Positions 2,302 to 63,969 of a stretch of DNA of 64,000 bases are shown here, in pieces. Origin of the DNA: Deltaproteobacteria bacterium CG11_big_fil_rev_8_21_14_0_20_47_16. GTDB lineage: Bacteria > UBA10199 > GCA-002796325 > 1-14-0-20-47-16. The notes beneath the pieces are model-generated. The model did not search any database. It had not been told where the DNA came from and saw nothing but the letters and a program-made list of their open reading frames with translations. Numbering within the stretch: position 1 is the stretch's first letter; the number at the start of each line of letters is the position of its first letter. A program made the position numbers and the translations under genes. The stretch spans positions 70,578 through 134,577 of the forward strand of contig PCXA01000006.1 in NCBI GenBank assembly GCA_002796325.1. Direction: 5' to 3'.

Positions 2302-3030
2302 CTACGAATGGAAGCAAGCGAAGTATTCCCGGTTTCCATCGGTGCCAGTGATGGGTGAATCGCACACACCAACAAGTGACCACCCTAAATCCGCGGCTAC
2401 AGATAAAACACCATCAATGGCCTGTTTCTGGGCATCATCATCTTTCACAATGCCCCCTTTGCCAATTTTATCAGGGCCCACTTCAAACTGAGGTTTGATT
2501 AGTGCTAACACGGTGGCATGCGGTGCAACCCAGCGTACAAGTTCTGGCAAAACACGTGCGAGTGAAATGAAAGAACAATCAATCACAATAAGCAATGGGG
2601 CATTGGGAAAATGGCTGGGCTGCAATTCTTTTACATGGGTTTTTTCCATCACCACCACACGAGGATCTTCGCGTAGTTTCCAGGCCAATTGATTGGTCCC
2701 CACATCCACGGCATAGACCTTGGCAGCTCCACGCTGAAGCAAACAATCCGTAAACCCACCGGTCGATGACCCAATGTCCGCACAAATGGTATCTTTGGGA
2801 TTAATCTTGAAGTGATCGAGTGCACCCGCCAGCTTTACACCACCGCGCCCGACATAAGGGTGGTCATGCCCTTTGACACGAATCACTGCATCTTCCGCAA
2901 CTTTATGGCCAGATTTTGTAACCGGAACATCATTGACCAACACCAAGCCCGCCATAATCATGGATTGCGCACGTTCACGTGATGGTGCGAGCCCCTTTTC
3001 AACCAACAACTGATCAATGCGCTGTTTCAT
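2302..3030 (-). CDS. tlyA: TlyA-family rRNA 2'-O-methyltransferase (haemolysin A-like)
   Basis: An N-terminal S4 domain (QRIDQLLVEKGLAPSRERAQ) is followed by an FtsJ-like methyltransferase domain (DIGSSTGGFTDCLLQRGAAKVYAVDVG). Length is 242 aa. Confidence 0.9.
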   Translation of the reverse strand: MKQRIDQLLVEKGLAPSRERAQSMIMAGLVLVNDVPVTKSGHKVAEDAVIRVKGHDHPYVGRGGVKLAGALDHFKINPKDTICADIGSSTGGFTDCLLQRGAAKVYAVDVGTNQLAWKLREDPRVVVMEKTHVKELQPSHFPNAPLLIVIDCSFISLARVLPELVRWVAPHATVLALIKPQFEVGPDKIGKGGIVKDDDAQKQAIDGVLSVAADLGWSLVGVCDSPITGTDGNREYFACFHS

Positions 3031-3659
3031 TGGCAGACATTTGTCATGGCCAGGCGGCCAGGTCCATCAAGTTCTGCTTTGGTGGGAGATAGTTGTTTTA
3101 GAAACATCTTGAGCACGCCATCCACAAGAGTATCGGTATAGCCGTCACCCCCATGACCATCATGTGACCGACAACCCGACACGTCTGATTCTGAAAAGTG
3201 ATGTTTGCAATAAAAGATCTCACTTACAGCAATTTTCAAATTATCCTTCAACACAATTGCCAGCGCCAAAGCCACTTGCGCCTTCAACTGATCATTGCGT
3301 TCCGGTACCCACGGTGATTCCCAAAAGTACCAATCCGACACGCTAGCGGTCATTGCCCCCAAACTTTGCGTTTCGGCATCGTAAGTGAAACTGACTTTTC
3401 CATGATTAAAAAGCGGATGTTTGGCGCTGCTATCAAAGGCAACTGTCAATCGGCACTGGCTGAGCGCACAATCAATCGTGAGTGTTGTGGTGTCACCCAC
3501 ATAATGATCTTTGCTATCAACAATGGCGACAAGGTTAGACCCATCCCCGACAGACTCATAATCAACCGCATTACTCGCCACTTCAAAATGCCCGTGGCGA
3601 TAAAAGTCTGCCGAGTTCGGCCTGGTTACGAGATTATATTGAGGTGCTATTTTGGACAT
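3027..3659 (-). CDS. Hypothetical beta-rich protein (about 210 aa) between the RLP gene and tlyA
   Basis: The ORF is in a coding-like frame. The internal start MSKIAPQ is preceded by an AAGGA ribosome-binding site. Its end overlaps the tlyA start by 4 nt (ATGA), suggesting translational coupling. I recognise no motif. Confidence 0.5.
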   Translation of the reverse strand: MSKIAPQYNLVTRPNSADFYRHGHFEVASNAVDYESVGDGSNLVAIVDSKDHYVGDTTTLTIDCALSQCRLTVAFDSSAKHPLFNHGKVSFTYDAETQSLGAMTASVSDWYFWESPWVPERNDQLKAQVALALAIVLKDNLKIAVSEIFYCKHHFSESDVSGCRSHDGHGGDGYTDTLVDGVLKMFLKQLSPTKAELDGPGRLAMTNVCQ

Positions 3660-3714
3660 ATATATCCTTTGACCATATATCGGATCATGTCCCAATTTGT
3701 TGCGTTAAAAAATG

Positions 3715-4896
3715 TTATATTGGAGCAACATTTTTCCACGCCTGATGCAGGCTGGTAGCCCCTGCACGGGGACCTTGTTCATGGCCAAACACCCCACGGC
3801 CTGAAATAAATCCAAAATCGGGGGACCCCACTTTTTGGGCAACCATCGGGAGCGTTTCAGCGGTGTCACTCCCCCCTGGAATGGGTAGCGCTTGGGCAAT
3901 ATTTCCCATCGGTTCCCAACAGGCCCGCACGTTTGCCATCACTTCTTCGTCGCTGCACTGCATGCGCGGGCCAAACCCCGCAATACCAATCCAGTCGCAA
4001 CCCGCCAGTCGCATGAGCTTGGTCCACACAACGGATGCCACCCCAAAATTGGACACGCGGCCGGAGACCGCAACACCGGCAAAATGACCCATCACTGGCA
4101 CTTCGCTGATGCGGCGCAATTGGCGTGCGGCAGATATGCCAGTGCAAATCGGATTGATCATCACGGCATTCGCACCATTTTCAACAGCGGTCTTATATAA
4201 GGATGGCAGGTCGTAAACTTCATCACTAATGCAGGCCAGGTAACATTTAGGTGTGCCCGTTTCCTTTTCAGCGCGCCGGCGCGCAAGACCCGCTGCACGC
4301 GCACGATCCGCCAATGGGGACCAGGTCATATCACCCAGCATTTCATCATCTTTTGCGATGTCCAAGCCGCCCACCCAACTTTCATAGGCGAGTTCGGCAA
4401 ACTGTTCAGGCGGCAGACCCAAATTGGGTTTCACCACACCAATAAAAAAGGGACGGCCTTCAATTTTGAAAATATCGCGCGAACCTTTGATGCCAAATTG
4501 CGGCCCTTCAAATTGTTTAAGATAAGCGTCAGGAAATTCAATATCCATGAGTTTGATAGCCTTGACCATCGGCGCATAGAACGCGCCTTCGCCGGCTACA
4601 GCTGCAATCAAGTTGGGGAGTTTCGCACCAAAATTTTCCCAAGGGTGAGCAATCGTGACGTCTACCACGCCGCTCTTTGCATTCAACGCCACCACCTTTG
4701 CAGCAAATTGAGGGCGCAAATCTTCGGTGGATCCTGGGCGATGCCACTGGGCGGTACTTTGTTCACTGCACAATGAAGCGGCAGCAAACTTAGGGTCGGC
4801 ATCAGTTTCAAAGCGATAGCGCAGCATCACATAGCGCGACAAATCCAGTGTTGTGCGATCTGCAAAAAATCCGGGGATGTCCTGAGTTTCAATCAT
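3715..4896 (-). CDS. RuBisCO large-subunit-like protein (form IV, RLP)
   Basis: The sequence carries RuBisCO large-chain signatures: VKPNLGL (compare IKPKLGL) and GGLDIAKDDE (compare GGLDFTKDDE, with the carbamylated Lys, Asp and Glu present). LAGCDWIGIAG matches LSGGDHIHSGT. The C-terminal region reads PIPGGSD...GRGVFGHEQG. At 393 aa it is short for a true RuBisCO. The second Lys of the KPK motif is replaced by Asn, and no His is visible where RuBisCO His294 would sit, which is typical of RLPs. The start overlaps the ispA stop by 4 nt. Confidence 0.8.
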   Translation of the reverse strand: MIETQDIPGFFADRTTLDLSRYVMLRYRFETDADPKFAAASLCSEQSTAQWHRPGSTEDLRPQFAAKVVALNAKSGVVDVTIAHPWENFGAKLPNLIAAVAGEGAFYAPMVKAIKLMDIEFPDAYLKQFEGPQFGIKGSRDIFKIEGRPFFIGVVKPNLGLPPEQFAELAYESWVGGLDIAKDDEMLGDMTWSPLADRARAAGLARRRAEKETGTPKCYLACISDEVYDLPSLYKTAVENGANAVMINPICTGISAARQLRRISEVPVMGHFAGVAVSGRVSNFGVASVVWTKLMRLAGCDWIGIAGFGPRMQCSDEEVMANVRACWEPMGNIAQALPIPGGSDTAETLPMVAQKVGSPDFGFISGRGVFGHEQGPRAGATSLHQAWKNVAPI

Positions 4897-9979: not shown

Positions 9980-11704
9980 TTATTGTGCCATCAAACGCGT
10001 TTCGGCGTTATCCAAAATCGGCAATAGAGGATCAAAAATGGGGTTGTGCAGTATATCAATTTCGACACGCAAGGCCGTAACCAACTCCTGGAGACATGGC
10101 CCTGCCCCAATGCTCTTCAGAATACCCTGTAGTAACTGAACAGGCGCTCGGCCGTCCATTACCATACCAATGACGGCGTCTTTCAATAAAGTTGCAACAC
10201 GTACATCGGATGTTGAATACAAATCAGTCAGCGCAAGGATTGCCTCATGGTCCCCCTCGACCACCTTTGCAATCAGTTGTTTTGCAAAGTTCATTGATTC
10301 TGCAGGATGAAGCGTAATGTAGCGCATCAATGTTGCCACCTCGCTGGAAACAATGACTTCCACAGGACGCAGACCTTCAGGTGCTGTACTCATTTCGGCC
10401 AGACGGCCCAACATCACCACAATGGTTGATTGATGGTGTGGAGAATCTTTGTTTAATTCCTTTAAAACACTGAGTGCCGTTTGGGCCATTTGATCTGTAC
10501 CCGATGCAACCTTGTATAAGGCGTCAATCGCCCCTGTTACCCCATACCGTGCAAATAATCCCAGTGACTGGATATCCCTTGCAATCGGTGTATGCGCACC
10601 TTTCAGAATGTCTCGTGCCAGAATAGCGCCACGCCCCGCTTTAATATCCATCACAGTTACATCATTTGCTACTGCAGGCTCTGCAACGGTCACAACACAT
10701 TGCCTACGCTCCGGTTCCAAACGATACAACGCTTCTTTCGCTGGATCACCAGCAGTTTCCATAAGCGTTACAATGTCTCTATATAGAGAAGTACTACGGC
10801 TCTCATTAGCAATGCTCACAAGGTCATCCCATGGCACATGTAGCCAGAAATCGGGATCGCGTGTCATGGTCACAATCAATGCAGAGCGATACTGCGGCAG
10901 CCGATCCAAGAGCCGCGCCAATGCCCATGCAACTTGCGTATTTCCACTACGCGCCAAAGAAGAGAGCACATAGATCGCATCATCTGAGATTGTACCTGTG
11001 TCCACAACCGCCTTAATGAACATCCTCATGTCTACAACCAATGTCGCAGGTTTCAAAATCAACCATGTCCGCACAAATGGAATCAGCTCTGGTGAAGACC
11101 GACTCAAGAATACACCAACGCTTTCACGAGACATCGTGCCATCAATGGCTTGTTGAGCCATTTGTTCTGGGGTGAGTCGTATTTTGGGCACAACCACCTC
11201 TGGGAAAGTTCCAGATTCTACTGCGGCTGCCGCCGTAACACGCGCCTCTGCAGCAACATTCTGACGTTGAATTGCCGCCTCGCGCTCAACGGCAAACTCA
11301 CGGCCATAACGCGCACCAATACCAATGAAGAAAGTGCCTGTCAGATATTGTGTAAACTCGCGCCAATTACGCGGAGGCGGCGCAAGCAAATCGTTGTCCC
11401 AACCTATCCATTGATTCACAACAACGTGCGGCAATCCACCTGTGACCGTGTTGATTCCCCCATAAACAATGTGGTTCACAATGGTGGGTACACGGGCAAC
11501 ACCATCCCAAACACCATAGTAATGACGAAACACCCCGGACCACGCGGCATTCTGACCCAGGTAATCATCAACACCCAAAATATATTTAAAAGTTAACTCT
11601 GGAAAAGCGAGGATCCCCGTCACAGAATCTACAAGGCCATCTGCACACTGCGCGGCGATCTCTTTGGGAGGAATCAAAAATCCGTTTCGAACTGGCGCTA
11701 CCAT
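9980..11704 (-). CDS. Hypothetical protein, 574 aa, HEAT/ARM-like helical C-terminal half
   Basis: This is a long ORF with coding-like composition. I see no catalytic motif. Confidence 0.5.
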   Translation of the reverse strand: MVAPVRNGFLIPPKEIAAQCADGLVDSVTGILAFPELTFKYILGVDDYLGQNAAWSGVFRHYYGVWDGVARVPTIVNHIVYGGINTVTGGLPHVVVNQWIGWDNDLLAPPPRNWREFTQYLTGTFFIGIGARYGREFAVEREAAIQRQNVAAEARVTAAAAVESGTFPEVVVPKIRLTPEQMAQQAIDGTMSRESVGVFLSRSSPELIPFVRTWLILKPATLVVDMRMFIKAVVDTGTISDDAIYVLSSLARSGNTQVAWALARLLDRLPQYRSALIVTMTRDPDFWLHVPWDDLVSIANESRSTSLYRDIVTLMETAGDPAKEALYRLEPERRQCVVTVAEPAVANDVTVMDIKAGRGAILARDILKGAHTPIARDIQSLGLFARYGVTGAIDALYKVASGTDQMAQTALSVLKELNKDSPHHQSTIVVMLGRLAEMSTAPEGLRPVEVIVSSEVATLMRYITLHPAESMNFAKQLIAKVVEGDHEAILALTDLYSTSDVRVATLLKDAVIGMVMDGRAPVQLLQGILKSIGAGPCLQELVTALRVEIDILHNPIFDPLLPILDNAETRLMAQ

Positions 11705-24055: not shown

Positions 24056-24149
24056 AATATTATTTATTTTCATATAGTTATACATTAGCAACTTTTTGGG
24101 CTCCCTGCCGATACATAGAGCCTAGCGACCATACAGGAGTAATACTGCA

Positions 24150-30884: not shown

Positions 30885-31084
30885 GCCAAAAACATGAAAA
30901 AATTAATTTAATAAAATCAATAGGTTGAAAAGCAACCACTTTTCTTATCCGTCGATGAGTCCCAAAATCCGGATTTCAGGACTATGTGTGTTCGGAAAAG
31001 CGAATGCGCTCACAACAGCGAGTTCACTTTAGTATCGTCAGTGGTCCAAAAATGTTGCCTATTTGTCACAAGAATAATGAAAAA

Positions 31085-31165: not shown

Positions 31166-33013
31166 CTACTTCACACTCCGTCTCACAACGATTGGGACCA
31201 AAGTGAGGAGTGTGAGCATCAGTGGGAGTGCTTGCATGGGCAGGCTTGGGGCGCCCCACATCATCATGGCACCACAACCCGATGCGCCGCTGGCAGCAGA
31301 TGGTGCACCGTCACTACCCATGGAAATAAAGCTGCCGGTCATGTTAGAGCCACCGCTGCCTTCACCAATGGATGGCTCATCTACACTCGGTATGCTGGGA
31401 AGATTGGAATCATTGCCGCCACCGAATCCGGTGTCACCCAGGTCGCCGCCCAGGGGCAGGCTCACCGGTTGACTGGCGGCGATTGTAACCTTACCTTCAC
31501 TTGTCATGTCAGCCATTTGAGCTACTTGGATTGCATCAGACATGAGACTTACTGTAGGTCTATTTGACAATACCCTGAGCGTACGAGGCCAAGGAAATCC
31601 ATTCTCACCCCCATCACATTTAAAGAATTTTTCGCCCTTTAAGATTTTCTTAGTAGATTCCACACCCTCTGCAGAAACCGAACGCAACGGAATATCATCA
31701 TCCGCAACCAAGACATCGCAATTGAGTTTATAGTTTAAACGGCTTTCATCCACTGCATCCACCTGCCCTTCTTTCTTATCAGATGATGCCTCAAGTAAAT
31801 TCAATTCCACTTTATTGGACGTGTTTGCTTGGTCCATTAACTTACCAATAATATAATCTGCTGCTGTTGCATCCTCGCTCGGCTTGTGTTTACCCATCCA
31901 CTCCGTACTAAAGAGCTGGCGCTGCTTGCTTTCATTGGAATCCGTATAAACAATTGTGTTGGCAGATTTAAAGTTGTTTTGGGTGACACCCACAGGGGAT
32001 GCCCCCTGCATAATCATCACCGCAGGGTTCCCATCGAGCGTGTTTTTTTGGATCATCGCAGATCCCTTCACATAGACTGTTCCAACTACGGTACTCGACA
32101 TTAACTTTGGAATATCCGCAAACACAGGCGCCACATTGGGGTCAGGATTAACATACGACATGTCAATCGGACCGTTTGTATTGACGAAACTTGCAGATGA
32201 ATGGTTCATGAGAATCAATGCATCATCGTAACCTTCAATTTTGTTACTCTGAACAACGCCCCCTTCGGCATCTGTGATTGCGCTTAGGGTGCTATCGGCA
32301 AGAATGATTCCCTTGCCGCCGTTCATATCAAATGGGGATTGGGTTTTATCAAATGTGACTGTAAACCCTTTTGCCACATTGTCAGACCCATAAATGTTCG
32401 CGGCTTCGTTACAATTGGCGATTGTCACTTTCAAAAACGTGGAGTCGCTGGCCGCCGCCGTCAGTGCTGTTTTGGGATAAAAATCATTTTGCTTCATGCC
32501 CTTATCCAAATAGCAACTGATATGCGCATCATTCATACCCACATTGTTACCCATCAACATAATAGGGCCACGCAAATTATTGGCATGGAAATTTTGTAAC
32601 AACACCTTTCCACCCATCACCGTGAGCATTTTTGCGCCAGTGCTTGCAAGATAGTTTTGTGCATCATCTTTGGCCACACCATCAATTGTCAGCCCATAAA
32701 TGATGACAGGATATTGTGAGGCGTTGGTGATGAGTGTTTGTGTTTTAAGTTTTGGGTACTCTTTATCCTTTTCGGCATCAGTTGTTCCCAAACAAAATAC
32801 AAATCGTTTCTTATCCTGTTGAAAATTTGACTGGAAGTTTGAGTCTGTAATGGGAGTCGACCGTAGTACTTCAAAGATTTTACCAACTTGGTCAGGTTTA
32901 AGATTAGGACACTCCGCCTCGGAGGCGATTCCCTCAATGGCCGCATGGGCCATTGCTGGCAACGCCATCCCCACCAAAACCACCATCAATCCCAAAATCA
33001 TCACTTGTCGTTT
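31166..33013 (-). CDS. Secreted parallel beta-helix repeat protein with a C-terminal sorting-signal-like tail
   Basis: A signal peptide (MKRQVMILGLMVVLVGMALPAMAHA) is followed by repetitive Asn/Gly-rich beta-helix-like segments. A Gly/Ser-rich linker leads to the tail GCGAMMMWGAPSLPMQALPLMLTLLTLVPIVVRRSVK, which has a Cys, a hydrophobic helix and basic end residues. The tail resembles MYXO-CTERM or PEP-CTERM-type sorting signals. Confidence 0.5.
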   Translation of the reverse strand, partial: KRQVMILGLMVVLVGMALPAMAHAAIEGIASEAECPNLKPDQVGKIFEVLRSTPITDSNFQSNFQQDKKRFVFCLGTTDAEKDKEYPKLKTQTLITNASQYPVIIYGLTIDGVAKDDAQNYLASTGAKMLTVMGGKVLLQNFHANNLRGPIMLMGNNVGMNDAHISCYLDKGMKQNDFYPKTALTAAASDSTFLKVTIANCNEAANIYGSDNVAKGFTVTFDKTQSPFDMNGGKGIILADSTLSAITDAEGGVVQSNKIEGYDDALILMNHSSASFVNTNGPIDMSYVNPDPNVAPVFADIPKLMSSTVVGTVYVKGSAMIQKNTLDGNPAVMIMQGASPVGVTQNNFKSANTIVYTDSNESKQRQLFSTEWMGKHKPSEDATAADYIIGKLMDQANTSNKVELNLLEASSDKKEGQVDAVDESRLNYKLNCDVLVADDDIPLRSVSAEGVESTKKILKGEKFFKCDGGENGFPWPRTLRVLSNRPTVSLMSDAIQVAQMADMTSEGKVTIAASQPVSLPLGGDLGDTGFGGGNDSNLPSIPSVDEPSIGEGSGGSNMTGSFISMGSDGAPSAASGASGCGAMMMWGAPSLPMQALPLMLTLLTLVPIVVRRSVK

Positions 33014-33160
33014 CATACGGTCCCCCCAATCACGCTGGCTTATACAAGCAAAGGGGATGCCAAGATGGTCACAAAAATAATTATTATTTTTCAAATAGTT
33101 ATACGGCGTTTATTCTAAAGGTAGGGTGAACACCCACCCAGGGCAGGTGTTAGTTTTGAC

Positions 33161-36580: not shown

Positions 36581-36695
36581 GAGATGGCTTCTTACTCCCC
36601 TTATATTATGGATACAACCCCCAAAATACCCCTGGGCGCCGTATAAGGGTGTTATCGGCTAAAGTTAGGAAAAGTTGCTCACAAATTGTAAGTTG

Positions 36696-48988: not shown

Positions 48989-50311
48989 CTAACGACGTGC
49001 AGCTTCCCGCAATCGTTCTTCAAATCGCTCCCGAAGACTAGTCGTTACAACTACCGGCAAATGACGACTTAATTTTCCAACACCCTCAAATCCCACTTCA
49101 CGACGAATTGCCATAGACAAAACAAAGTGCTGCCCCGGATCATGGATAGCCGCCTCTATCTCTGACATTGGCACATGTAGTCGCAGCGATAAGTGGCGCA
49201 CAAGCTCCATTGCGCCACGGGGATTATTGACGGGTGGATAGTGTGTAAAAGGCCCGCGCCACTCATTAACCGTTGTCACGCGCATCCTAACATCTTCCCT
49301 TAGCAAATCAATTGCGTGCTCTGCTTGCTCCAGAAAACGATCCACACGACCAGGCAACGCAGATCCAGGAACCCAAGCAACACCTGTCTGCAACAAAAGA
49401 TTGGCCATTTTGACATTATAAACAACCAGTGGACGCGGATCTACAGGGGCATAACGACTCAAGACATCGGCAATTACTTGATAGTGAGATGGCATGGGGT
49501 CGCCCACCCATTCAACAGATGCCGACAATCCACTATCCAACAACCCCATCCCTGCAGCCTTCTCCAATACCAGAGAACGACTCGTCACAACATCCCCATT
49601 GCGCCATCGGATATCAAGAGTCTCCGCATAACGCTGGGCAATTTGATCAAAATAACTGAGATCCCGAAGTACAAAATTGATTAATAGTGCATCTACAAGC
49701 AAATATGGGTTCTTCAAACGATCCCCAAATATATCAAGCGTATGTACAGCCTCTATTAAAAGTCGAACAAACAAATCCTTATGCCCCAACAATAGGGCAT
49801 ACGCAGCTGCATACATCTTGTGATTCACAGACATGAGAAAATCATCGTGACCATGTGCATAGTAATCCGAGATTGATCGATGTGTTGTTTCAAGTTGTCC
49901 CAGAACAGACCGAAGATCATTGGTATCTTGTCGTGTCATCAGCAGCACATCACGCCCCATTGCAAAGGCCTGAACTGCCAATGGGAGTGCTTCAAGATCA
50001 TTCGACATACCGTTCAAAACAAACTCGCCAACCAAACCCAATCCCCCTACAATCATTTTTGGGAGTGGCGTCTCTAAAATACTCAACCCACGCCCACCAG
50101 CCTTACGGGCAGCATGAGCTTCGCGAAACAATCCCGTTCGCATTTCTGGAATATTCGTGAGCAGCGCCTGAAGTTGGGCATACCTCTGCCAATGACTGGC
50201 TGCATTGTCATGGAGATGGGCTTTATCCGCGGCAACCGCCTCACCGTACACAAACCCAGCAATGCCTCGAGCCAGTTCTTGCAAACGTTCTGGTATTGTT
50301 AATACACTCAT
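48989..50311 (-). CDS. Hypothetical alpha-helical protein (440 aa), paralogue of the upstream gene
   Basis: It shares collinear similarity with the 50321-51664 product, for example the C-terminal RFEERLREAARR versus RFKETWEHARR, and AAYALLLGHKDLFVRLL versus AAYFYALEQADLFVQGL. Confidence 0.5.
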   Translation of the reverse strand: MSVLTIPERLQELARGIAGFVYGEAVAADKAHLHDNAASHWQRYAQLQALLTNIPEMRTGLFREAHAARKAGGRGLSILETPLPKMIVGGLGLVGEFVLNGMSNDLEALPLAVQAFAMGRDVLLMTRQDTNDLRSVLGQLETTHRSISDYYAHGHDDFLMSVNHKMYAAAYALLLGHKDLFVRLLIEAVHTLDIFGDRLKNPYLLVDALLINFVLRDLSYFDQIAQRYAETLDIRWRNGDVVTSRSLVLEKAAGMGLLDSGLSASVEWVGDPMPSHYQVIADVLSRYAPVDPRPLVVYNVKMANLLLQTGVAWVPGSALPGRVDRFLEQAEHAIDLLREDVRMRVTTVNEWRGPFTHYPPVNNPRGAMELVRHLSLRLHVPMSEIEAAIHDPGQHFVLSMAIRREVGFEGVGKLSRHLPVVVTTSLRERFEERLREAARR

Positions 50312-50320
50312 AAAAGTAAT

Positions 50321-51664
50321 TTAGCGCCTGGCGTGTTCCCATGTTTCTTTGAAACGCATATGTAGTTCCGGCAGACGCACCGCCGGCAATTCTGCCCGCA
50401 ATTGACGATACTGCTCTCGTGTTACCAATTGTTGAAGTTTAATATCCAAAAAACCACCATCGGGACGCAACAATGCAATTTCAACATCAGTTGGCATGAC
50501 GTTCAAACGAAAAGATATCATACGTACCAAACGCATTGCATCAACCGGTCTCGACACCACAAGCCGTCGGATCTCACGGACAGACACTCGATAATCGGAT
50601 GGATAAACCATAATCTGTCGCTGAGCAACAGTATGCGCATCATTCGCCAAATATAAAAATTCGGTCACACGCCTGGCCAATTGAGAATGACGATTCATCG
50701 TCTTCACTTTTCGAAGTATAAAATCGACTTGATCCATTGCATAGATCAGCGTGGGAATTGGATTGATGTCAATCATCTGACACAAAACTGCCATCACAAT
50801 CGCATTCCAACTGGGCGACACCCCACCACGCCACTCCTGCGCCACTGTTTTTAATTGTGTATCAAATAATCCATACTCAGCCATCAGTGCATATAATCGA
50901 TCACGGCTCTCTTGGCGGAAAAACTCATTTGGTACATCTTCATCAGGCTCCAACATACTCGTCACGATCGACAACTGATTCAAAGTACATACTGCATCAA
51001 GGGACTGGCGGGCTTTCCCTTGAGCCTCTTGCAGTCGCAACAAACCAGCCGTTGATTTGTTTAGGCCCTGGACAAACAAATCGGCCTGTTCAAGTGCATA
51101 AAAATATGCCGCAGAAAACATTGCATGTTTAGTGGCATTACGCACACCAGCAATAGAATCATCCAGAGCATAAATGCTTGTCAGTTTCTCGTGAGCCAGT
51201 CCAATTTTAAAATTGACCTCATAAACTGCATCTTCGGATGGATTAATTGCTTGCATGACATCACGCGCCAAAAGCAGTGTTCGTAACGCATGCCGTACAA
51301 CCGCAATATCGTTGTCACCACTGGTCTCAAGAAGCATCTTACCTAAAAAGAAAATGGCATCCGCCAGTACTTGTTCGGTGGGAACCTCCGTTGTCCAGCG
51401 CGCATCTTCATCATTGTAATCAGCCGTTTGGGGATGGCGCATCATTTGTGCAGCTCGAAACAGTGCTTGTCGCGAATCACTAACATTCCCCGTAATCGCT
51501 GTCATACGCGCAACGGTCAACCAAGATGCCACTTGCAAGCTGGGGTCTGAAATGGTTGGCTCTTGCAGCTCTTGCTTAGCGCGCAAGTGTAGTCCATCCG
51601 CATATTTTCTAATGAATGGTGGAATCGATATTTGAAACGGGGATAGTTGATTAGGGGCAGCCAT
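50321..51664 (-). CDS. Hypothetical alpha-helical protein (447 aa), tandem paralogue
   Basis: See the paralogue at 48989-50311. No motif is recognisable. Confidence 0.5.
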   Translation of the reverse strand: MAAPNQLSPFQISIPPFIRKYADGLHLRAKQELQEPTISDPSLQVASWLTVARMTAITGNVSDSRQALFRAAQMMRHPQTADYNDEDARWTTEVPTEQVLADAIFFLGKMLLETSGDNDIAVVRHALRTLLLARDVMQAINPSEDAVYEVNFKIGLAHEKLTSIYALDDSIAGVRNATKHAMFSAAYFYALEQADLFVQGLNKSTAGLLRLQEAQGKARQSLDAVCTLNQLSIVTSMLEPDEDVPNEFFRQESRDRLYALMAEYGLFDTQLKTVAQEWRGGVSPSWNAIVMAVLCQMIDINPIPTLIYAMDQVDFILRKVKTMNRHSQLARRVTEFLYLANDAHTVAQRQIMVYPSDYRVSVREIRRLVVSRPVDAMRLVRMISFRLNVMPTDVEIALLRPDGGFLDIKLQQLVTREQYRQLRAELPAVRLPELHMRFKETWEHARR

Positions 51665-51669
51665 AAAAG

Positions 51670-53034
51670 TTACCGGCTGGCCGCACCAGCAAGCGCACCT
51701 GCAAAGCCCATTCTAGCCACGACCACGCCCACCAATTCACCGCCGATTAAGGAATCTATCCCTGCAGCGACTGCCAACTCAGGCCCTACAATGGCACCGA
51801 CAGCAATCACACCACCTGCAATAAAAACAAGATCCAGATAACCTTTGCCGCCCTTCATTTCGGGATCGCCAATTTCGGCATTCGTACGGCGGCCGCTTTC
51901 CACAGCAAGATCCACCGCAACAAACTCGTCAGGTAATGGAGTTTCTGGGGCATCTGCAGCAGCTGGCGCTTCCTCATTTTTTGGTGCAGCAGTAGCAGCA
52001 GCTGCTGCTGTAGCTTCTGCAATATGTGCCATGAAACCATGACCACCTGTCATTGGAGTATCATTGGGTGGATCTTTGCGAAAAATTGCCTTAATACCTT
52101 CCACAATTTTGTGCACAGTTTGAATTGGATGAGTAATCAAGCGCACGTCACGAATGAAGAGGTCACCTCCACCACGCAACGCCCACCCGAATGAAATACG
52201 CCCCACACTCAAAGCTGTGAGCAACAGGCCAACGCCAACTTTTAACTGCTTTTCTAATGGGTATTGGAAAAATACTTCCAACGCATTGGGATCTTGCAAA
52301 ATATGTGTACGGACTGCATCCACCTGATAGGTCAAATTCTGAATACCATGGTACGCTTCAATTTGACCGTCCAACTTCAAGGCATTCGCAACTGCGATCA
52401 GAACACCATACAGACGCATCATCGACTCAAGGTCTTTACTAAAATAGTATGTACCCCGCGGCCCTCTACGAAAAATGTCACTCTCATCGGAATCACCCAC
52501 AGTCCAACGAATCTGTGCGACCAGATGTTCCGTCAATGCATCTGAAATAATTTCCCAACCAGATTGGGGATCCCCATTCATCTCCTTGGGTGGACTCTTT
52601 TCAAAATACGCAATAGATGTTTCTTTACGCACATGGCTTCCGCCCCAATAACGATCATCGACGACGATGACCTTGTCTGCGATCTCACTATCAGATCGTA
52701 ATCGTGGATGCGGAAACGCAATTGGCAATTGAGGCAACGTCACTGCTGGTGCAACTTGAGACTGAGGATGTGGATTCACAATCCCGGCCAGAAGGGTATT
52801 TAAGAATGGCATTGCATCTTTTTGAGCATAGATTTTACCATCCTTGGTATCCTGACAGACAAACCGTGAACTTTGTGGATCCATCTGACCCAACAGATCT
52901 GGCGTCACAATCGTCAAAAATGGCGTCTTACCATCGGGCCCTGGAAAGGCAATCATGGGAAATTCTTGAAACTGCTCAGGAATAGGTGTCGGACAGGATT
53001 GTACAGGTGTTATTGGTTTGTCGTTACTTCCCAT
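51670..53034 (-). CDS. Hypothetical protein (454 aa) with an Ala/Pro-rich linker and a C-terminal glycine-zipper hydrophobic domain
   Basis: The C-terminus is GYLDLVFIAGGVIAVGAIVGPELAVAAGIDSLIGGELVGVVVARMGFAGALAGAASR, with GxxxG/A zipper repeats. There is no N-terminal signal peptide. Confidence 0.5.
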   Translation of the reverse strand: MGSNDKPITPVQSCPTPIPEQFQEFPMIAFPGPDGKTPFLTIVTPDLLGQMDPQSSRFVCQDTKDGKIYAQKDAMPFLNTLLAGIVNPHPQSQVAPAVTLPQLPIAFPHPRLRSDSEIADKVIVVDDRYWGGSHVRKETSIAYFEKSPPKEMNGDPQSGWEIISDALTEHLVAQIRWTVGDSDESDIFRRGPRGTYYFSKDLESMMRLYGVLIAVANALKLDGQIEAYHGIQNLTYQVDAVRTHILQDPNALEVFFQYPLEKQLKVGVGLLLTALSVGRISFGWALRGGGDLFIRDVRLITHPIQTVHKIVEGIKAIFRKDPPNDTPMTGGHGFMAHIAEATAAAAATAAPKNEEAPAAADAPETPLPDEFVAVDLAVESGRRTNAEIGDPEMKGGKGYLDLVFIAGGVIAVGAIVGPELAVAAGIDSLIGGELVGVVVARMGFAGALAGAASR

Positions 53035-53198
53035 GGGCTAAGCCTCCTCTTACAAGATATATTGAATTATCGGCATTCTCGCCAAAAAGTTGCGTCAATG
53101 TAGGACAAATAGGCGAATTAAAAGAACATTAATCTTAGAAATCTTTGACATTCACAGAAAAGTCACCGATAATTGGGCCCTACCCAAAGGAAAATAAC

Positions 53199-54627: not shown

Positions 54628-54690
54628 TTGATTTTAAATGCAAAGAGCCCTGCACCTGAGGTGTGAGACACCTGCTACAGTGCAAGGCCG
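54628..54690. terminator. Terminator hairpin of the GGTGTGGGACACC-core repeat family (copy C), shared by convergent pyk and the 54675-55379 gene
   Basis: The sequence is TTGATTTTAAATGCAAAGAGCCCTGCACCTGAGGTGTGAGACACCTGCTACAGTGCAAGG. It forms an imperfect long hairpin. On the minus strand it is followed by a U-rich tract (CTCTTTGCATTT). Confidence 0.6.
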
Positions 54691-55379
54691 ACGCGCAACA
54701 CAACTGCCGCTGCGGCATCACCAAATGGCAAGGGGCCATCTGCAATTGCGAGAGCACCTGCTACGGCAACAAACCCAACAATGGGCCAAATAGAGGGCGC
54801 GAGTGATGGCGCATGATAATGTGGCGATGGCTGCACGCGAAACACCGCCGTCTTCACTGCAAACTTAACTGCCACTGTCAGTGCTGCAATCTCATCCAAT
54901 GAGTGGGCACACAGCGCAAGACCGGTTGATGCAACTTGATCTGTTGCTGTTTGCACCAAGGCTTTCCCTTGAACAGTCATCCATTGCCCCATGCGAGATG
55001 GCATATGGGCTGACCATCGAATCAATTGATGTCCCAGGGATTCCAAAAAAACACCCATATAGCGATCGCCCACAAACTTCGTTGTCACCAACATACCGCC
55101 AAGTGTAGCGGAATGTGCGACTTCATAATTATCATGTGTATACAAACCATAGACCGCCTTACCTCCGGTAATACCCAGACCCACATAATACATGGCGCGC
55201 ATACCATCGCGCATAACCCAACAAGTAGCGCCCTTAATGCGTGGAAATCGATTTTGATTCATTGCGAGGGGACCGAGAGTTGTAACAAGCGCAAAGGTCC
55301 CTACTGTCCAAGGATTGGCAACCACGTCCAACAGTGCATCAGTAATACCTTCTCTGATGGGGTAGCGAGTTACTTCCAC
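54675..55379 (-). CDS. Hypothetical protein (234 aa)
   Basis: A long ORF with an Ala/Gly-rich C-terminus. I recognise no motif. Confidence 0.4.
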   Translation of the reverse strand: MEVTRYPIREGITDALLDVVANPWTVGTFALVTTLGPLAMNQNRFPRIKGATCWVMRDGMRAMYYVGLGITGGKAVYGLYTHDNYEVAHSATLGGMLVTTKFVGDRYMGVFLESLGHQLIRWSAHMPSRMGQWMTVQGKALVQTATDQVASTGLALCAHSLDEIAALTVAVKFAVKTAVFRVQPSPHYHAPSLAPSIWPIVGFVAVAGALAIADGPLPFGDAAAAVVLRVGLAL

Positions 55380-55702
55380 AGGACTTCAGACGGTTGGCCC
55401 AAACGCCCATTAACCACGGGGTATACCACTGAATACAATCCATGAATCGCCCAACCAACCTTAGTGATTTTGCGCCACTGCACAATGGCATCGTTCAGTT
55501 GTTCCTGGGAAGGTTGGGTTGTCTCTGATGAGACACAAATTGTCTGGGTAATTTCTTCTGCGCTACAGCGCGCAACGCGGATCCCCCCCCGATAGCGATG
55601 TGTACATTCCGAAACAGATTTTGTGGCTTCCATGCAACGATCCATAACAATGCCCTCCATTGGCTTGGGGGGCCTGCTATGATCTTTAAGGGTTACTGTC
55701 AA
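55370..55702 (-). CDS. Small hypothetical Cys-containing protein; contains a G8/C8 homopolymer tract
   Basis: The track gives 110 aa. The likely start is an internal Met. A C8 run at 55583-55590 encodes RGG. Confidence 0.3.
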   Translation of the reverse strand: MTVTLKDHSRPPKPMEGIVMDRCMEATKSVSECTHRYRGGIRVARCSAEEITQTICVSSETTQPSQEQLNDAIVQWRKITKVGWAIHGLYSVVYPVVNGRLGQPSEVLWK

Positions 55703-59415: not shown

Positions 59416-60021
59416 ATGGTCGATAAAATTGATCGCCCGGATCCTATTTCCAAATATGAAATTCAAAAAAGCGCTGAAACTCACGACGAGAAGCAGCGCC
59501 AACATGATGAGCGCCATGAGGAGGAAGACGAATTCACCTCTCCCGGCATTGAGACCTCTTGGAATAAATTTCGAGAAGACACACCACGTCGTCAGGTCAT
59601 TACCCTCCAAAGAGATGATGTACGCCAGGCCATTTTTAGACAGGCATCACTCAAACATCGCTCAACCGTTTTAGAGGCCGACCTCATACTCAAAGATGGT
59701 CGCACATTGTCGCATGCCGCCTACGTCTCAAACAATATGGATGATTACTGGAAGTGGAAGGGCTGGGTACCTGGACAAGTTGTCCCCATTGAACTCATGG
59801 TTCAGGGACAAGTCATGCAAGTCAGTATCCCCATGCCGGGTACCAACAAAGTTATATCCAAGGAAGGCACCGGTTCTTCTCGCATTGCTGGAGTACCTTC
59901 CAAAGCAAAACTTTGGCAAGACAGCAAAACGGGTCAGCTCAATTGGTTATGGCTCAGCAAAGTCGGTGCAGCAGTTATCGTTGGATTGTGGGTTGTCGGT
60001 AAACTGGCGAGGTGGTGGTAG
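59416..60021 (+). CDS. Hypothetical protein with acidic N-terminus and C-terminal TM helix
   Basis: The N-terminus is HDEKQRQHDERHEEEDE. The C-terminus is VGAAVIVGLWVVGKLARWW. Confidence 0.4.
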   Translation: MVDKIDRPDPISKYEIQKSAETHDEKQRQHDERHEEEDEFTSPGIETSWNKFREDTPRRQVITLQRDDVRQAIFRQASLKHRSTVLEADLILKDGRTLSHAAYVSNNMDDYWKWKGWVPGQVVPIELMVQGQVMQVSIPMPGTNKVISKEGTGSSRIAGVPSKAKLWQDSKTGQLNWLWLSKVGAAVIVGLWVVGKLARWW

Positions 60022-62580: not shown

Positions 62581-63969
62581 ATGACACGCGATACTGAACA
62601 TACGACACAGGTCATTAAAACCGAGGAGACTGGTGATGTTATTAGCCTGCGCAAAGGCCAACTAGTCGTCATCGAAGGCGAAGATAAAGGTCGAAAATTT
62701 CGCTTAGAAAAACCGCAAATTAAAATCGGCAAGAAGGAAGGTAACGATCTGTTGCTTTCCGACAAGACCGTGTCACGCAATCACATTGAGATTGAATATA
62801 CTTCTGACAGCTTCCTTTTACGCGACCTAGGGTCAACCAACGGTACCTATCTCAATGGTACACGTGTTAAGGAGGCCTACTTGGCACCTGGCGATGTCAT
62901 TAAGCTGGGGAACACCTCAATTGAATTTCAAGCATTCAGTGAAACTGTTAAAATTGAACCATCTGAAAACGAATCTTTCGGCAGTATGGTCGCAAAGAGT
63001 CGCAAGATGCGACAAATCTTCGGCATTCTTGAAAAAATTGCCCCTACATTTGCAACAGTTGTTATCGAAGGTGAAACTGGAACGGGTAAAGACCTTGTCG
63101 CGCAGGCTATCCACCACTTTAGCACACGCAAGAATCGTCCATTTATTGTCTTTGACTGTAGCGCCGTGGCATCCAACCTTATTGAAAGTGAACTATTTGG
63201 CCATGAAAAGGGAGCTTTCACGGGTGCGATCAAATCACGCAAAGGCGCATTTGAAGAAGCGGCGGGTGGTACCATATTCCTAGACGAAATTGGCGAACTC
63301 CCCCTAGACTTGCAGCCCAAATTACTTCGTGCGTTGGAACAACGTGAAATTCGCCGTGTAGGTTCCAACATTGCTACTGATATTGATGTTCGTGTTCTCT
63401 GCGCAACTAATCGCGATCTCAAAAAGGAAGTTGCTGAAGGCCGCTTTCGCGAAGATTTATACTACCGCCTATCCGTAGTTAAAATCAACATCCCCCCCCT
63501 ACGCGATCGCCCAGAAGACATCCCCATGATCATTGAGAAAATCCTCAAAGATGCCAAATTTAACCGTACAGTTGATGGAGGCCTGCGCGTCGTACGCGTA
63601 GAAGATGATGCCCTCAAAGTATTACAGCGCTACCAATGGCCAGGAAACGTGCGCGAGCTGGCAAACATTGTAGAACGAGCTGTATCCTTTGCTGAAGGTA
63701 ACAGTATTGCAAAATCCCATCTGGATTATGTGTTTTCGGAACTAGATGCGGAAGAAGAGCACACCGAAAAGCTGGTCATGGATACAGATCTCCCATTCAA
63801 GGAAGCCAAGCAAAAATTGTTGGATGTCTTTGAAAAGGATTATCTCATCGACCTACTCAAGCGAAACAACAACAATCTTTCCAAAGCCGCCCGTGAGGCC
63901 AAGATTGATCGCAAACACATTCGCAATCTTCTTAAAAAGTACGGCATCTCCGTCCGCGATGACGATTAA
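62581..63969 (+). CDS. Sigma-54-dependent transcriptional activator with N-terminal FHA domain
   Basis: The FHA domain has GKKEGNDLLLSDKTVSRNHIEI...LGSTNGTYLNG. The AAA+ sigma-54 interaction domain has GETGTGKDLVAQAIH, ESELFGHEKGAFTGA and the GAFTGA motif. A C-terminal Fis-type helix-turn-helix is present. Confidence 0.9.
   Translation: MTRDTEHTTQVIKTEETGDVISLRKGQLVVIEGEDKGRKFRLEKPQIKIGKKEGNDLLLSDKTVSRNHIEIEYTSDSFLLRDLGSTNGTYLNGTRVKEAYLAPGDVIKLGNTSIEFQAFSETVKIEPSENESFGSMVAKSRKMRQIFGILEKIAPTFATVVIEGETGTGKDLVAQAIHHFSTRKNRPFIVFDCSAVASNLIESELFGHEKGAFTGAIKSRKGAFEEAAGGTIFLDEIGELPLDLQPKLLRALEQREIRRVGSNIATDIDVRVLCATNRDLKKEVAEGRFREDLYYRLSVVKINIPPLRDRPEDIPMIIEKILKDAKFNRTVDGGLRVVRVEDDALKVLQRYQWPGNVRELANIVERAVSFAEGNSIAKSHLDYVFSELDAEEEHTEKLVMDTDLPFKEAKQKLLDVFEKDYLIDLLKRNNNNLSKAAREAKIDRKHIRNLLKKYGISVRDDD

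Follow-up and report, generated by a model that had tools for sequence, protein, structure and literature searches.

Several described modules couple a hydrophobic protein that lacks a signal peptide to an all-helical partner of the TPR type, including the translocator-chaperone pairs of type III secretion systems (T3SS) YopB/D-SycD, IpaB/C-IpgC and CopB/D-LcrH. Here, we analyze a cassette of three minus-strand genes, denoted A, B and C, in a 64-kb stretch (the window) of contig PCXA01000006.1 from the Deltaproteobacteria bacterium CG11_big_fil_rev_8_21_14_0_20_47_16, which is at most similar to such combinations of a hydrophobic protein with helical-repeat partners. The reading that we favor, with a probability of roughly 0.4, is that the cassette represents a lineage-specific operon controlled by an alternative sigma factor and encoding a C-tail-anchored membrane protein (A) together with two alpha-solenoid partners (B and C).

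The chaperones of the SycD/LcrH/IpgC/CesD group consist of ~150-220 amino acids (aa) and contain three TPRs, whereas B and C are ~440 aa each, are duplicated, and show neither sequence similarity to these chaperones nor a match to TIGR02552. Unlike the translocators YopB/IpaB/SseC and YopD/IpaC, protein A has no Pfam or NCBIfam match, and its hydrophobic region occupies the C-terminus and not the center of the protein; moreover, the A-B-C cassette is located outside of the T3SS locus. The inclusion membrane (Inc) proteins of Chlamydiae are defined by a bilobed hydrophobic domain of 40-60 aa, with two helices of 15-32 aa separated by a loop of 3-22 aa (PMC3048545). Descriptively, both A and its single detectable relative, P0003, possess such a domain, which in A spans 40-54 aa and includes a short Pro-containing turn; A also resembles the Inc proteins in the absence of a signal peptide, the S/T/P-rich N-terminus and the conservation within a narrow lineage. 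However, Inc proteins are specific to Chlamydiae and reside in the inclusion membrane, whereas A comes from what is catalogued as a deltaproteobacterial groundwater metagenome-assembled genome (MAG), with a full his operon. ElaB/YqjD and TssL are bacterial C-tail-anchored inner-membrane proteins that recruit cytoplasmic partners. Protein A similarly combines a putative cytoplasmic N-terminal domain and a flexible linker with a hydrophobic C-terminal end that follows basic residues, but its 54-aa tail is two-lobed and contains internal charges, and there is no sequence relationship to these proteins.

The proposed operon and its promoter motif

The genes encode proteins of 454, 447 and 440 aa and are separated by spacers of 5 nt (A/B) and 9 nt (B/C); the open reading frames (ORFs) and independent gene calls agree with an earlier note on this DNA. 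The same three genes have been called independently on public contigs (n=9), without Pfam annotation, and the respective NCBI records, from the Crystal Geyser MAG, read "hypothetical protein". The start codon of B lies 5 nt past the stop codon of A (TAACTTTTATG), that of C lies 9 nt past the stop codon of B, and the junction ACTTTTATG is common to both boundaries. The single strong Shine-Dalgarno sequence of the cassette, AGGAGG, is the one preceding A, and neither a promoter nor a terminator can be convincingly recognized within A-B-C. Given this AGGAGG, the 5/9-nt spacing and the shared junction, we infer a single operon in which translation of the genes is coupled; the same features indicate that a tandem duplication, which appears to have given rise to B and C, took the junction along with the gene. 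An 8-bp stem-loop (TTGCTGGTGCGGCCAGCCGGTAA CTTTTATG) spans the stop codon of A directly before the start of B; it is flagged as terminator-like, the number of such sites not being above that in shuffled sequences, and could modulate the A:B stoichiometry or translational coupling.

The paralogy of B and C, the existence of a homolog of A elsewhere, the AGGAGG sequence and codon usage within the host range together imply that these ORFs are more than chance. Codon usage and the GC content at third codon positions (GC3, 0.40-0.42) fall within the host range, although close to its lower limit, so that recent horizontal transfer is weakly supported. Neither flanking repeats nor mobility genes surround the cassette, and the window yields no structured RNA in an Rfam search. 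The sequence of the locus is 100% identical among all Crystal Geyser contigs, which leaves no population signal and no ratio of nonsynonymous to synonymous substitutions (dN/dS).

The ATG of A is preceded, at a distance of 32 nt, by the putative promoter GCAACTTT-N11-GCCGATAA (Table 1). Two exact copies of the complete 16-base motif are present in the window; with up to three mismatches, there are five occurrences against 0.69 expected, a count reached in none of 100 shuffles, and the reduced pattern GCAAC-N16-CGAT is found eight times against 0.70 expected (0/100 shuffles reach eight). The four copies associated with A, a subtilase, a hydrolase and a methyltransferase-HAD fusion gene are all intergenic and correctly oriented. 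A match to GCAAC-N16-CGAT is also located at the very 5' end of a 222-aa ORF. The same motif, with one mismatch, is found 28 nt before the gene for P0003, which belongs to a different organism, and the two genes share the upstream pattern GCAACTTTTT(T)GGCGA...CGATAA at a nearly equal distance from the ATG. The motif is thus retained despite the protein sequence identity of 27% and the GC content of 56% vs 48%, and its presence upstream of P0003 links the A family with the respective sigma regulon.

The consensus for sigma-28 is TAAAGTTT-n11-GCCGATAA (PMC2859248, PMC12784957). The A promoter matches this consensus in all 8 positions of the -10 element and in the 11-nt spacing, but in only 5/8 positions of the -35 element. 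The latter element, GCAACTTT, looks similar to the -35 element recognized by sigma factors of the extracytoplasmic function (ECF) type (G[GC]AACTT), and the promoter is compatible with sigma-28-type and ECF-type factors alike. A sigma-54 reading was rejected in view of the unsuitable GG/GC spacing. As in the sigma-28 (FliA/WhiG/chlamydial) regulons, the GCCGATAA element at 11 nt is found here upstream of genes for a non-flagellar protease and hydrolase, but there is no fliA or flagellar gene in sight. A similar situation is seen in the attack-phase regulon of Bdellovibrio, where sigma-28-type promoters (TTAAG-N16-CCGATA) drive many non-flagellar genes, including those for proteases and uncharacterized proteins (PMC3627812). 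The divergent pyruvate kinase gene (pyk) has a near-consensus sigma-70 promoter that lies back-to-back with the A promoter, ~50 bp apart. As this predicted promoter shows, standard sigma-70 elements serve housekeeping genes in this organism, and since the pyk promoter is near-perfect, the A promoter appears to belong to a distinct class.

Protein A and its proposed helical partners

Protein A lacks an N-terminal signal peptide, as the earlier note had it, and starts with a Pro-rich region. Its alignment with P0003 (366 aa, 27% identity, E=7e-33 in a BLASTP search) reveals an architecture shared in full by the two proteins, namely an N-terminal block, a core, a flexible linker and a bilobed hydrophobic tail. 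The conserved features of the N-terminal block (aa 11-66) are Q12, C14 and P15 (Q-x-C-P), PG..G.T, TPxLxxQxxP and C60-Q61; this is the sole part of the AlphaFold model of A with a predicted local distance difference test score (pLDDT) above 60, and it is a candidate docking peptide for B and C. The core domain contains the conserved motifs VAQIR, GxYY, VGRIxFG, HPxQT and KDPP, and the profile match of P0003 spans residues 129-345 of A. The Ala/Pro/Glu linker of A, recognized in the earlier note as an Ala/Pro-rich segment, is replaced by a Gly/Ser linker in P0003, which suggests a flexible tether of variable length.

The Kyte-Doolittle hydropathy of A exceeds 1.5 over aa 397-453, and a second such segment covers aa 264-286. 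The tail consists of two lobes (~399-417 and 420-452) with a break at P418-E419, and is preceded by the basic residues R382, R383, K394 and K397; in P0003, the bilobed profile (lobes ~327-343 and 352-366) and the Pro residue are retained. This region is a putative membrane anchor or insertion hairpin. The hydrophobic C-terminal domain had been identified in the earlier note as a glycine zipper of the kind found in membrane-inserting toxins and 17-kDa antigen-like anchors, which the present analysis does not bear out. The pattern small-xxx-small-xxx-small occurs 7 times in the tail vs 4.9 +/- 2.1 times in shuffled sequences (p ~0.22), the strict form (G/A/S)xxxGxxxG is present once in A and not at all in P0003, and the Pfam families Gly-zipper_Omp/OmpA/YMGG and Rick_17kDa_Anti do not match A at E<=1. 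The "glycine zipper" thus appears to be compositional, and the conserved feature is the predicted hydrophobic helix-Pro-helix tail. The likeness of the tail to the C-terminus of the 234-aa protein encoded upstream is also compositional, and kinship of the two was rejected.

Proteins B and C are collinear paralogs with similar C-termini, as previously noticed; a BLASTP comparison shows 24% identity over ~400 aa (E=3e-20), and the conserved C-terminal block covers ~70 aa (A.M.LVR..S.RL.V....E.A). A relationship of A to B or C was rejected on comparison. The hydropathy profile of B includes one segment above the threshold (aa 288-307, maximum 1.69), and that of C includes none. The AlphaFold model of B, built from an alignment of depth 2, is all-helical: aa 11-215 (pLDDT 70-89) form 9-10 consecutive helices of ~20 aa each, stacked as hairpins, and a C-terminal module (aa 361-428) is predicted with pLDDT 58-80. 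The Foldseek neighbors of B are all weak and comprise TPR, SNAP, LGN, Sel1 and Rap repeat proteins, the best among them being LGN/Pins TPR, alpha/gamma-SNAP (Sec17), sNASP, Rap and Sel1. The model suggests that B is a soluble, all-helical protein, the N-terminal half of which is a TPR-like array of helical hairpins. The predicted stack of hairpins recalls TPR/SNAP/Sel1 alpha-solenoids, in which antiparallel helical hairpins pile up into a superhelix, but the Pfam models for TPR, Sel1 and SNAP do not match B or C even at E<=1.

Searches of Pfam, NCBIfam, PADLOC and PHROGs with A, B, C and the upstream 234-aa ORF yield nothing meaningful and no catalytic or family motif, in line with the earlier description of the cassette as a candidate uncharacterized system devoid of recognizable catalytic motifs. 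Single-sequence and profile searches of the PDB sequences with the three proteins also return nothing. In a word-indexed search of 5.8 billion protein clusters, A finds itself alone and B, the cluster representative of which is a fragment, finds nothing; adding P0003 to form an A+P0003 profile brings no further members. When 1.84 billion representative proteins are scanned exhaustively using HMMER and the concatenated profile [A+B; A+C], which covers both A and B/C, the matches are A, P0003 and two fragments, each identical to a portion of B or C; no relative of B/C beyond their own fragments is recovered. Four degenerate-pattern scans of genome and metagenome contig collections and translated searches of plasmid and phage genomes detect no relatives. 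Thus, A represents a new protein family and B and C a new pair of paralogs; among ~15 billion public proteins, the A family has 2 members, and B and C have only each other. Sequence orphans of this sort are common in poorly sampled lineages.

Under the favored reading, A, B and C would be expressed as one operon, with coupled translation, from an alternative-sigma promoter with a sigma-28-like -10 element and an ECF-like -35 element; here, the promoter motif rests on sequence statistics, and the single transcript and coupled translation on the spacers and the junction. Protein A, which has no signal peptide, would be synthesized in the cytoplasm and held on the cell's own inner membrane by the helix-Pro-helix tail, probably aided by the segment of aa 262-286. 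A flexible linker of 45-70 aa would connect the tail to the conserved domain of ~320 aa, which would be exposed to the cytoplasm. B and C, produced alongside as soluble TPR-like alpha-solenoids, would bind A, most plausibly at its conserved N-terminal block, which is extended and rich in Pro, and a scaffold tethered to the membrane would result. The module would be switched on within a sigma-controlled program together with a lipoprotein subtilase and an alpha/beta-hydrolase.

Table 1. Coordinates of the cassette, its promoter motif and other features. Coordinates are those of the window unless prefixed with a contig label.
Feature	Coordinates	Strand	Details
Gene A	51670..53034	-	454 aa; PIR20993.1, COV45_03770; ORF and called gene
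Gene B	50321..51664	-	447 aa; PIR20992.1, COV45_03765; ORF and called gene
Gene C	48989..50311	-	440 aa; PIR20991.1, COV45_03760; paralog of B
Shine-Dalgarno sequence AGGAGG	53043..53048	-	8 nt 5' of the ATG of A
Promoter of A, GCAACTTT-N11-GCCGATAA	53067..53093	-	-35-like element 53093..53086, -10 element 53074..53067
Exact copy of the motif	36652..36678	-	71 nt before the gene for a 1139-aa lipoprotein S8 subtilase
Copy with one mismatch	24088..24114	+	35 nt before the gene for a 529-aa alpha/beta-hydrolase without signal peptide
Copy with three mismatches	31032..31058	-	147 nt 5' of the methyltransferase-HAD fusion gene
Fifth match (<=3 mismatches)	3577..3603	+	within a minus-strand ORF, probably chance
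Motif upstream of P0003	L007:22-48		one mismatch
Promoter of pyk	53145..53173	+	sigma-70, TTGACA-17-GATAAT, 11/12
Stem-loop at the A/B boundary	51670..51692	-	8 bp
A, conserved N-terminal block	52837..53004	-	aa 11-66; A/P0003 alignment
A, conserved core domain	52066..52656	-	aa 127-323; A/P0003 alignment and profile match
A, internal hydrophobic Gly-rich segment	52177..52251	-	aa 262-286; hydropathy
A, low-complexity Ala/Pro/Glu linker	51847..52065	-	aa 324-396; composition, alignment
A, bilobed hydrophobic Gly/Ala/Val-rich tail	51673..51846	-	aa 397-454; hydropathy; Pro and small residues kept in P0003
T3SS cluster	L008:11893-21389		window-equivalent ~64.5-74 kb
Candidate translocator	L008:13970-15103	-	377 aa
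T3SS-locus protein	L008:12407-13297	-	296 aa
FHA-domain sigma-54 enhancer-binding protein	62581..63969	+
Orphan pair, first ORF	54675..55379	-	234 aa
Orphan pair, second ORF	55370..55645	-	91 aa
ORF without Pfam family	9980..11704	-	574 aa
ORF without Pfam family	31166..33094	-	642 aa
ORF without Pfam family	3027..3695	-	222 aa
ORF without Pfam family	59416..60021	+	201 aa
RuBisCO large-subunit-family protein	3715..4896	-	393 aa

The type III secretion cluster and other neighboring genes

Just past the right edge of the window, on the same contig, there is a cluster of T3SS genes that encode an ATPase, FliJ/YscO-like, FliK-C-terminal-like and FliM-like proteins, SctQ, a FliO-like protein, SctR, SctS and SctT. 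The end of this module is ~11.4 kb from the start of A, with ten unrelated genes between them. SctR scores above the curated NCBIfam cut-offs (TIGR01102, 231.9>208.6; NF009438, 245.5>179) and misses the FliP cut-off (194.9<217.45). The cluster ends in two pairs of genes, each consisting of a gene for a family-less protein followed by one for a small TPR protein, with a spacing of 0-21 nt; the best match of these TPR proteins (TPR216 and TPR170) is the SycD/LcrH chaperone family TIGR02552 (3.7e-21 and 1.7e-17, respectively). Given the cut-offs that favor SctR over FliP and the presence of SycD/LcrH-like chaperones, a flagellar reading was rejected, and the evidence points to a system of the injectisome family. 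The retained FliM-like and FliO-like parts recall the early-branching non-flagellar T3SSs (NF-T3SSs) of deltaproteobacteria (PMC3459982).

Two proteins of this cluster, of 377 aa and 296 aa, have no family matches. In the larger one, a low-complexity stretch of Gly, Ser and Pro precedes a hydrophobic block rich in Met, Ala and Gly (MMMLFMYFAMMAMSGDIGAMAGFMQFITTII), and the C-terminus is helical; because of this combination, the protein is a candidate novel translocator. With the TIGR02552 matches of the local chaperones as a positive control, comparison of B and C with these chaperones using hhalign gives E=0.51 and 0.56, and that of A with the 377-aa protein gives E=0.48, so that kinship was rejected in both cases. 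The N-terminal motif by which class-II chaperones bind their clients is PxLxxP (PMC4536800); it is absent from A, P0003 and the local 377-aa and 296-aa proteins alike and hence is non-discriminating here. The promoter motif GCAACTTT-N11-GCCGATAA is not found among the T3SS genes that are visible here. A gene for an FHA-domain sigma-54 enhancer-binding protein is located directly between this locus and the gene for a Ser/Thr kinase with a PEGA domain; by analogy with HrpR/S, its product is a possible regulator of the T3SS.

The window itself is ordinary chromosome, with the his operon, ftsK, ligA, xseAB, M16 peptidases, pyk, lexA-dinB, PBP4 and Ser/Thr kinases, and without mobile-element genes. 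The convergent gene downstream of the cassette encodes a response regulator with REC and HD/HD_5 domains, that is, the HD-GYP regulator reported previously. An overlapping pair of orphan ORFs is located between PBP4 and pyk; the first of these, the 234-aa ORF mentioned above, encodes a protein with Gly/Ala-rich hydrophobic C-terminal segments, no family match and no significant similarity to A. Four other ORFs have no Pfam family (Table 1); the 642-aa one appears to include a signal peptide when read from an internal start. The RuBisCO large-subunit-family protein, encoded between a polyprenyl synthase gene and a gene for an unknown protein, matches with a moderate score and is likely to be a RuBisCO-like protein of form IV, not a carboxylase.

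Alternative functions and implications

A scaffold on the cell's own membrane is ranked first because this explanation includes the fewest unshown steps. Several observations weigh against it. The proposed interaction between A and B/C is conjectural, and since B and C have no relatives at all, there is no second case of co-occurrence with A. The gene that follows P0003 on its 1.7-kb contig (L007), with a 4-nt overlap, is partial, and over the 166 aa that are visible it is not detectably B/C-like (Smith-Waterman z ~0, against z=8.7 for B vs C as the control), so that it was rejected as a B/C relative; this bears on the synteny of the trio. The charged residues in the second lobe of the tail (E419, D427, E433, R441) are unusual for a plain transmembrane helix. 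The AlphaFold model of A, derived from a two-sequence alignment, is unusable (pLDDT 36); the middle of the B model (aa 216-360) is without confidence, and the Foldseek matches of B are not significant (best E ~6e-3 in PDB and 2e-3 in BFVD, TM-score<=0.25). No sigma-factor gene is found in the window or its flanks. Finally, the T3SS in the vicinity would be an alternative destination of A.

In that case, A would be an injectisome substrate, either an effector or a translocator-like protein, with the tail inserting into the membrane of a target cell, and B/C would be oversized TPR-like chaperones or adaptors that maintain A in the cytoplasm in a soluble state competent for secretion. This possibility, which we consider doubtful, draws on the location of the T3SS cluster, with its SctR above the curated cut-offs, ~11 kb from the start of A, and on the correspondence between the A-then-B/C gene order and the local pairs of a family-less protein followed by a SycD/LcrH-like TPR protein. 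The absence of a signal peptide fits as well, as does the composition of the first 30 residues of A, 17 of which are S/T/P/N/Q/I, with no Leu, similar to the local 296-aa protein; the tail conforms to the bilobed Inc definition (40-60 aa, two helices, short loop; PMC3048545), extreme divergence is usual for effectors, and the FHA-sigma-54 activator adjoins the T3SS. However, ten unrelated genes, among them pyk, PBP4, lexA, dinB and a Ser/Thr kinase gene, intervene, and a secretion or motility machine within ~15 kb is not very rare for a random locus. B and C exceed class-II chaperones ~2.7-fold in size and lack similarity to the local ones, A has none to the local translocator-like protein, and A and P0003 lack PxLxxP, although the presumed local translocators lack it too. 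An alternative-sigma promoter on candidate substrates recalls HrpR/S, HrpL and the hrp box, but the motif is not seen in the visible T3SS locus, and the motif-bearing subtilase carries a lipoprotein signal peptide, which makes it Sec-dependent. For the resemblance to effector/chaperone loci suggested in the earlier note, the TPR-like model of B and the proximity of a T3SS with SycD/LcrH-like chaperones are circumstantial evidence, whereas sequence similarity and PxLxxP are lacking. A bolder version appears unlikely, namely, that the cassette represents a kind of T3SS cargo not seen before, from non-pathogenic bacteria of the environment. Under this version, an early-branching T3SS of the injectisome family would insert an Inc-like effector into a target (prey or host) membrane, with duplicated TPR-like chaperones of giant size as its escort, and the sigma-28/ECF-type "effector-box" promoter driving its expression would also mark other candidate effectors, such as the alpha/beta-hydrolase that has no signal peptide.

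The other possibilities are less probable still. The polymorphic toxin/immunity architecture proposed in the earlier note, whereby A would permeabilize a membrane by means of the glycine-zipper tail and immunity would be provided by the duplicated B/C, is suggested by the hydrophobic Gly/Ala-rich C-terminus followed by two tandem paralogs and by the orphan status and slightly low GC3 of the genes. It is highly improbable given that Pfam, NCBIfam and PADLOC searches (for A, at E<=1) detect no toxin, PAAR, Rhs/YD, LXG, WXG100, MIX, CdiA/TPS or immunity family, and that type IV, V, VI and VII secretion systems (T4SS, T5SS, T6SS, T7SS) and Rhs genes, as well as arrays of orphan toxin-tip/immunity cassettes, are absent from the 64-kb window and 10 kb on each side. 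Furthermore, the zipper periodicity does not exceed chance, immunity proteins of 440 aa are atypical, the locus is free of flanking repeats and mobility genes, is identical in all sampled contigs and has no plasmid or phage relatives, and in P0003 the tail is kept together with the N-terminal domain rather than swapped as a tip, a weak test with two sequences. A multi-component alpha-pore-forming toxin of the AhlABC/SmhABC/Hbl/Nhe or YaxAB/XaxAB style, in which three proteins of ~350-450 aa form a membrane pore, deserves equally little credence. Gram-negative tripartite and binary toxins of this type have no signal peptides, and the tripartite ones consist of three co-transcribed proteins, two of them paralogous; the cassette likewise encodes three helical proteins of similar size without signal peptides, two of which are paralogs and one has a hydrophobic segment. 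In A, however, this segment is at the extreme C-terminus, and B/C have none, whereas the tripartite toxins carry internal hydrophobic heads on the paralogous components; the Pfam families HBL and ClyA/HlyE do not match even at E<=1, no ClyA, Ahl, Yax or Hbl chain is among the top 50 Foldseek matches in PDB, and the B model, confident in part, is a hairpin-repeat solenoid rather than an elongated ClyA-type bundle. It is also quite unlikely that the genes are co-transcribed but functionally separate, B/C being, for example, TPR-type sensors or regulators in which the conserved C-terminal 70 aa would be a small helical module that binds DNA or protein, and A an unrelated membrane protein, or that they are decaying, non-functional ORFs. 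The C-terminal block of B/C has a pattern similar to a helix-turn-helix (HTH) and a moderate pLDDT (58-80), and the L007 partner of the A homolog does not resemble B/C; but HTH, GerE and other DNA-binding families do not match at E<=1, the tight coupling and common junction speak for stoichiometric co-production, and long intact ORFs, retained paralogs, and a promoter and architecture kept in a second organism argue against decay.

Irrespective of the destination of A, the promoter motif defines a small regulon that includes the subtilase and hydrolase genes along with the operon, and provides a handle for genome-wide regulon prediction. Two aspects of the locus are worth attention, namely, the enrichment of this motif and its retention in two organisms, and the closeness of the T3SS with the same order of substrate followed by a TPR partner. 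If the scaffold explanation is correct and the link to the T3SS is not, the cassette would be a lineage-specific membrane scaffold; if that link is true, A would be a rare candidate cargo for environmental T3SSs, the substrates of which are essentially unknown.

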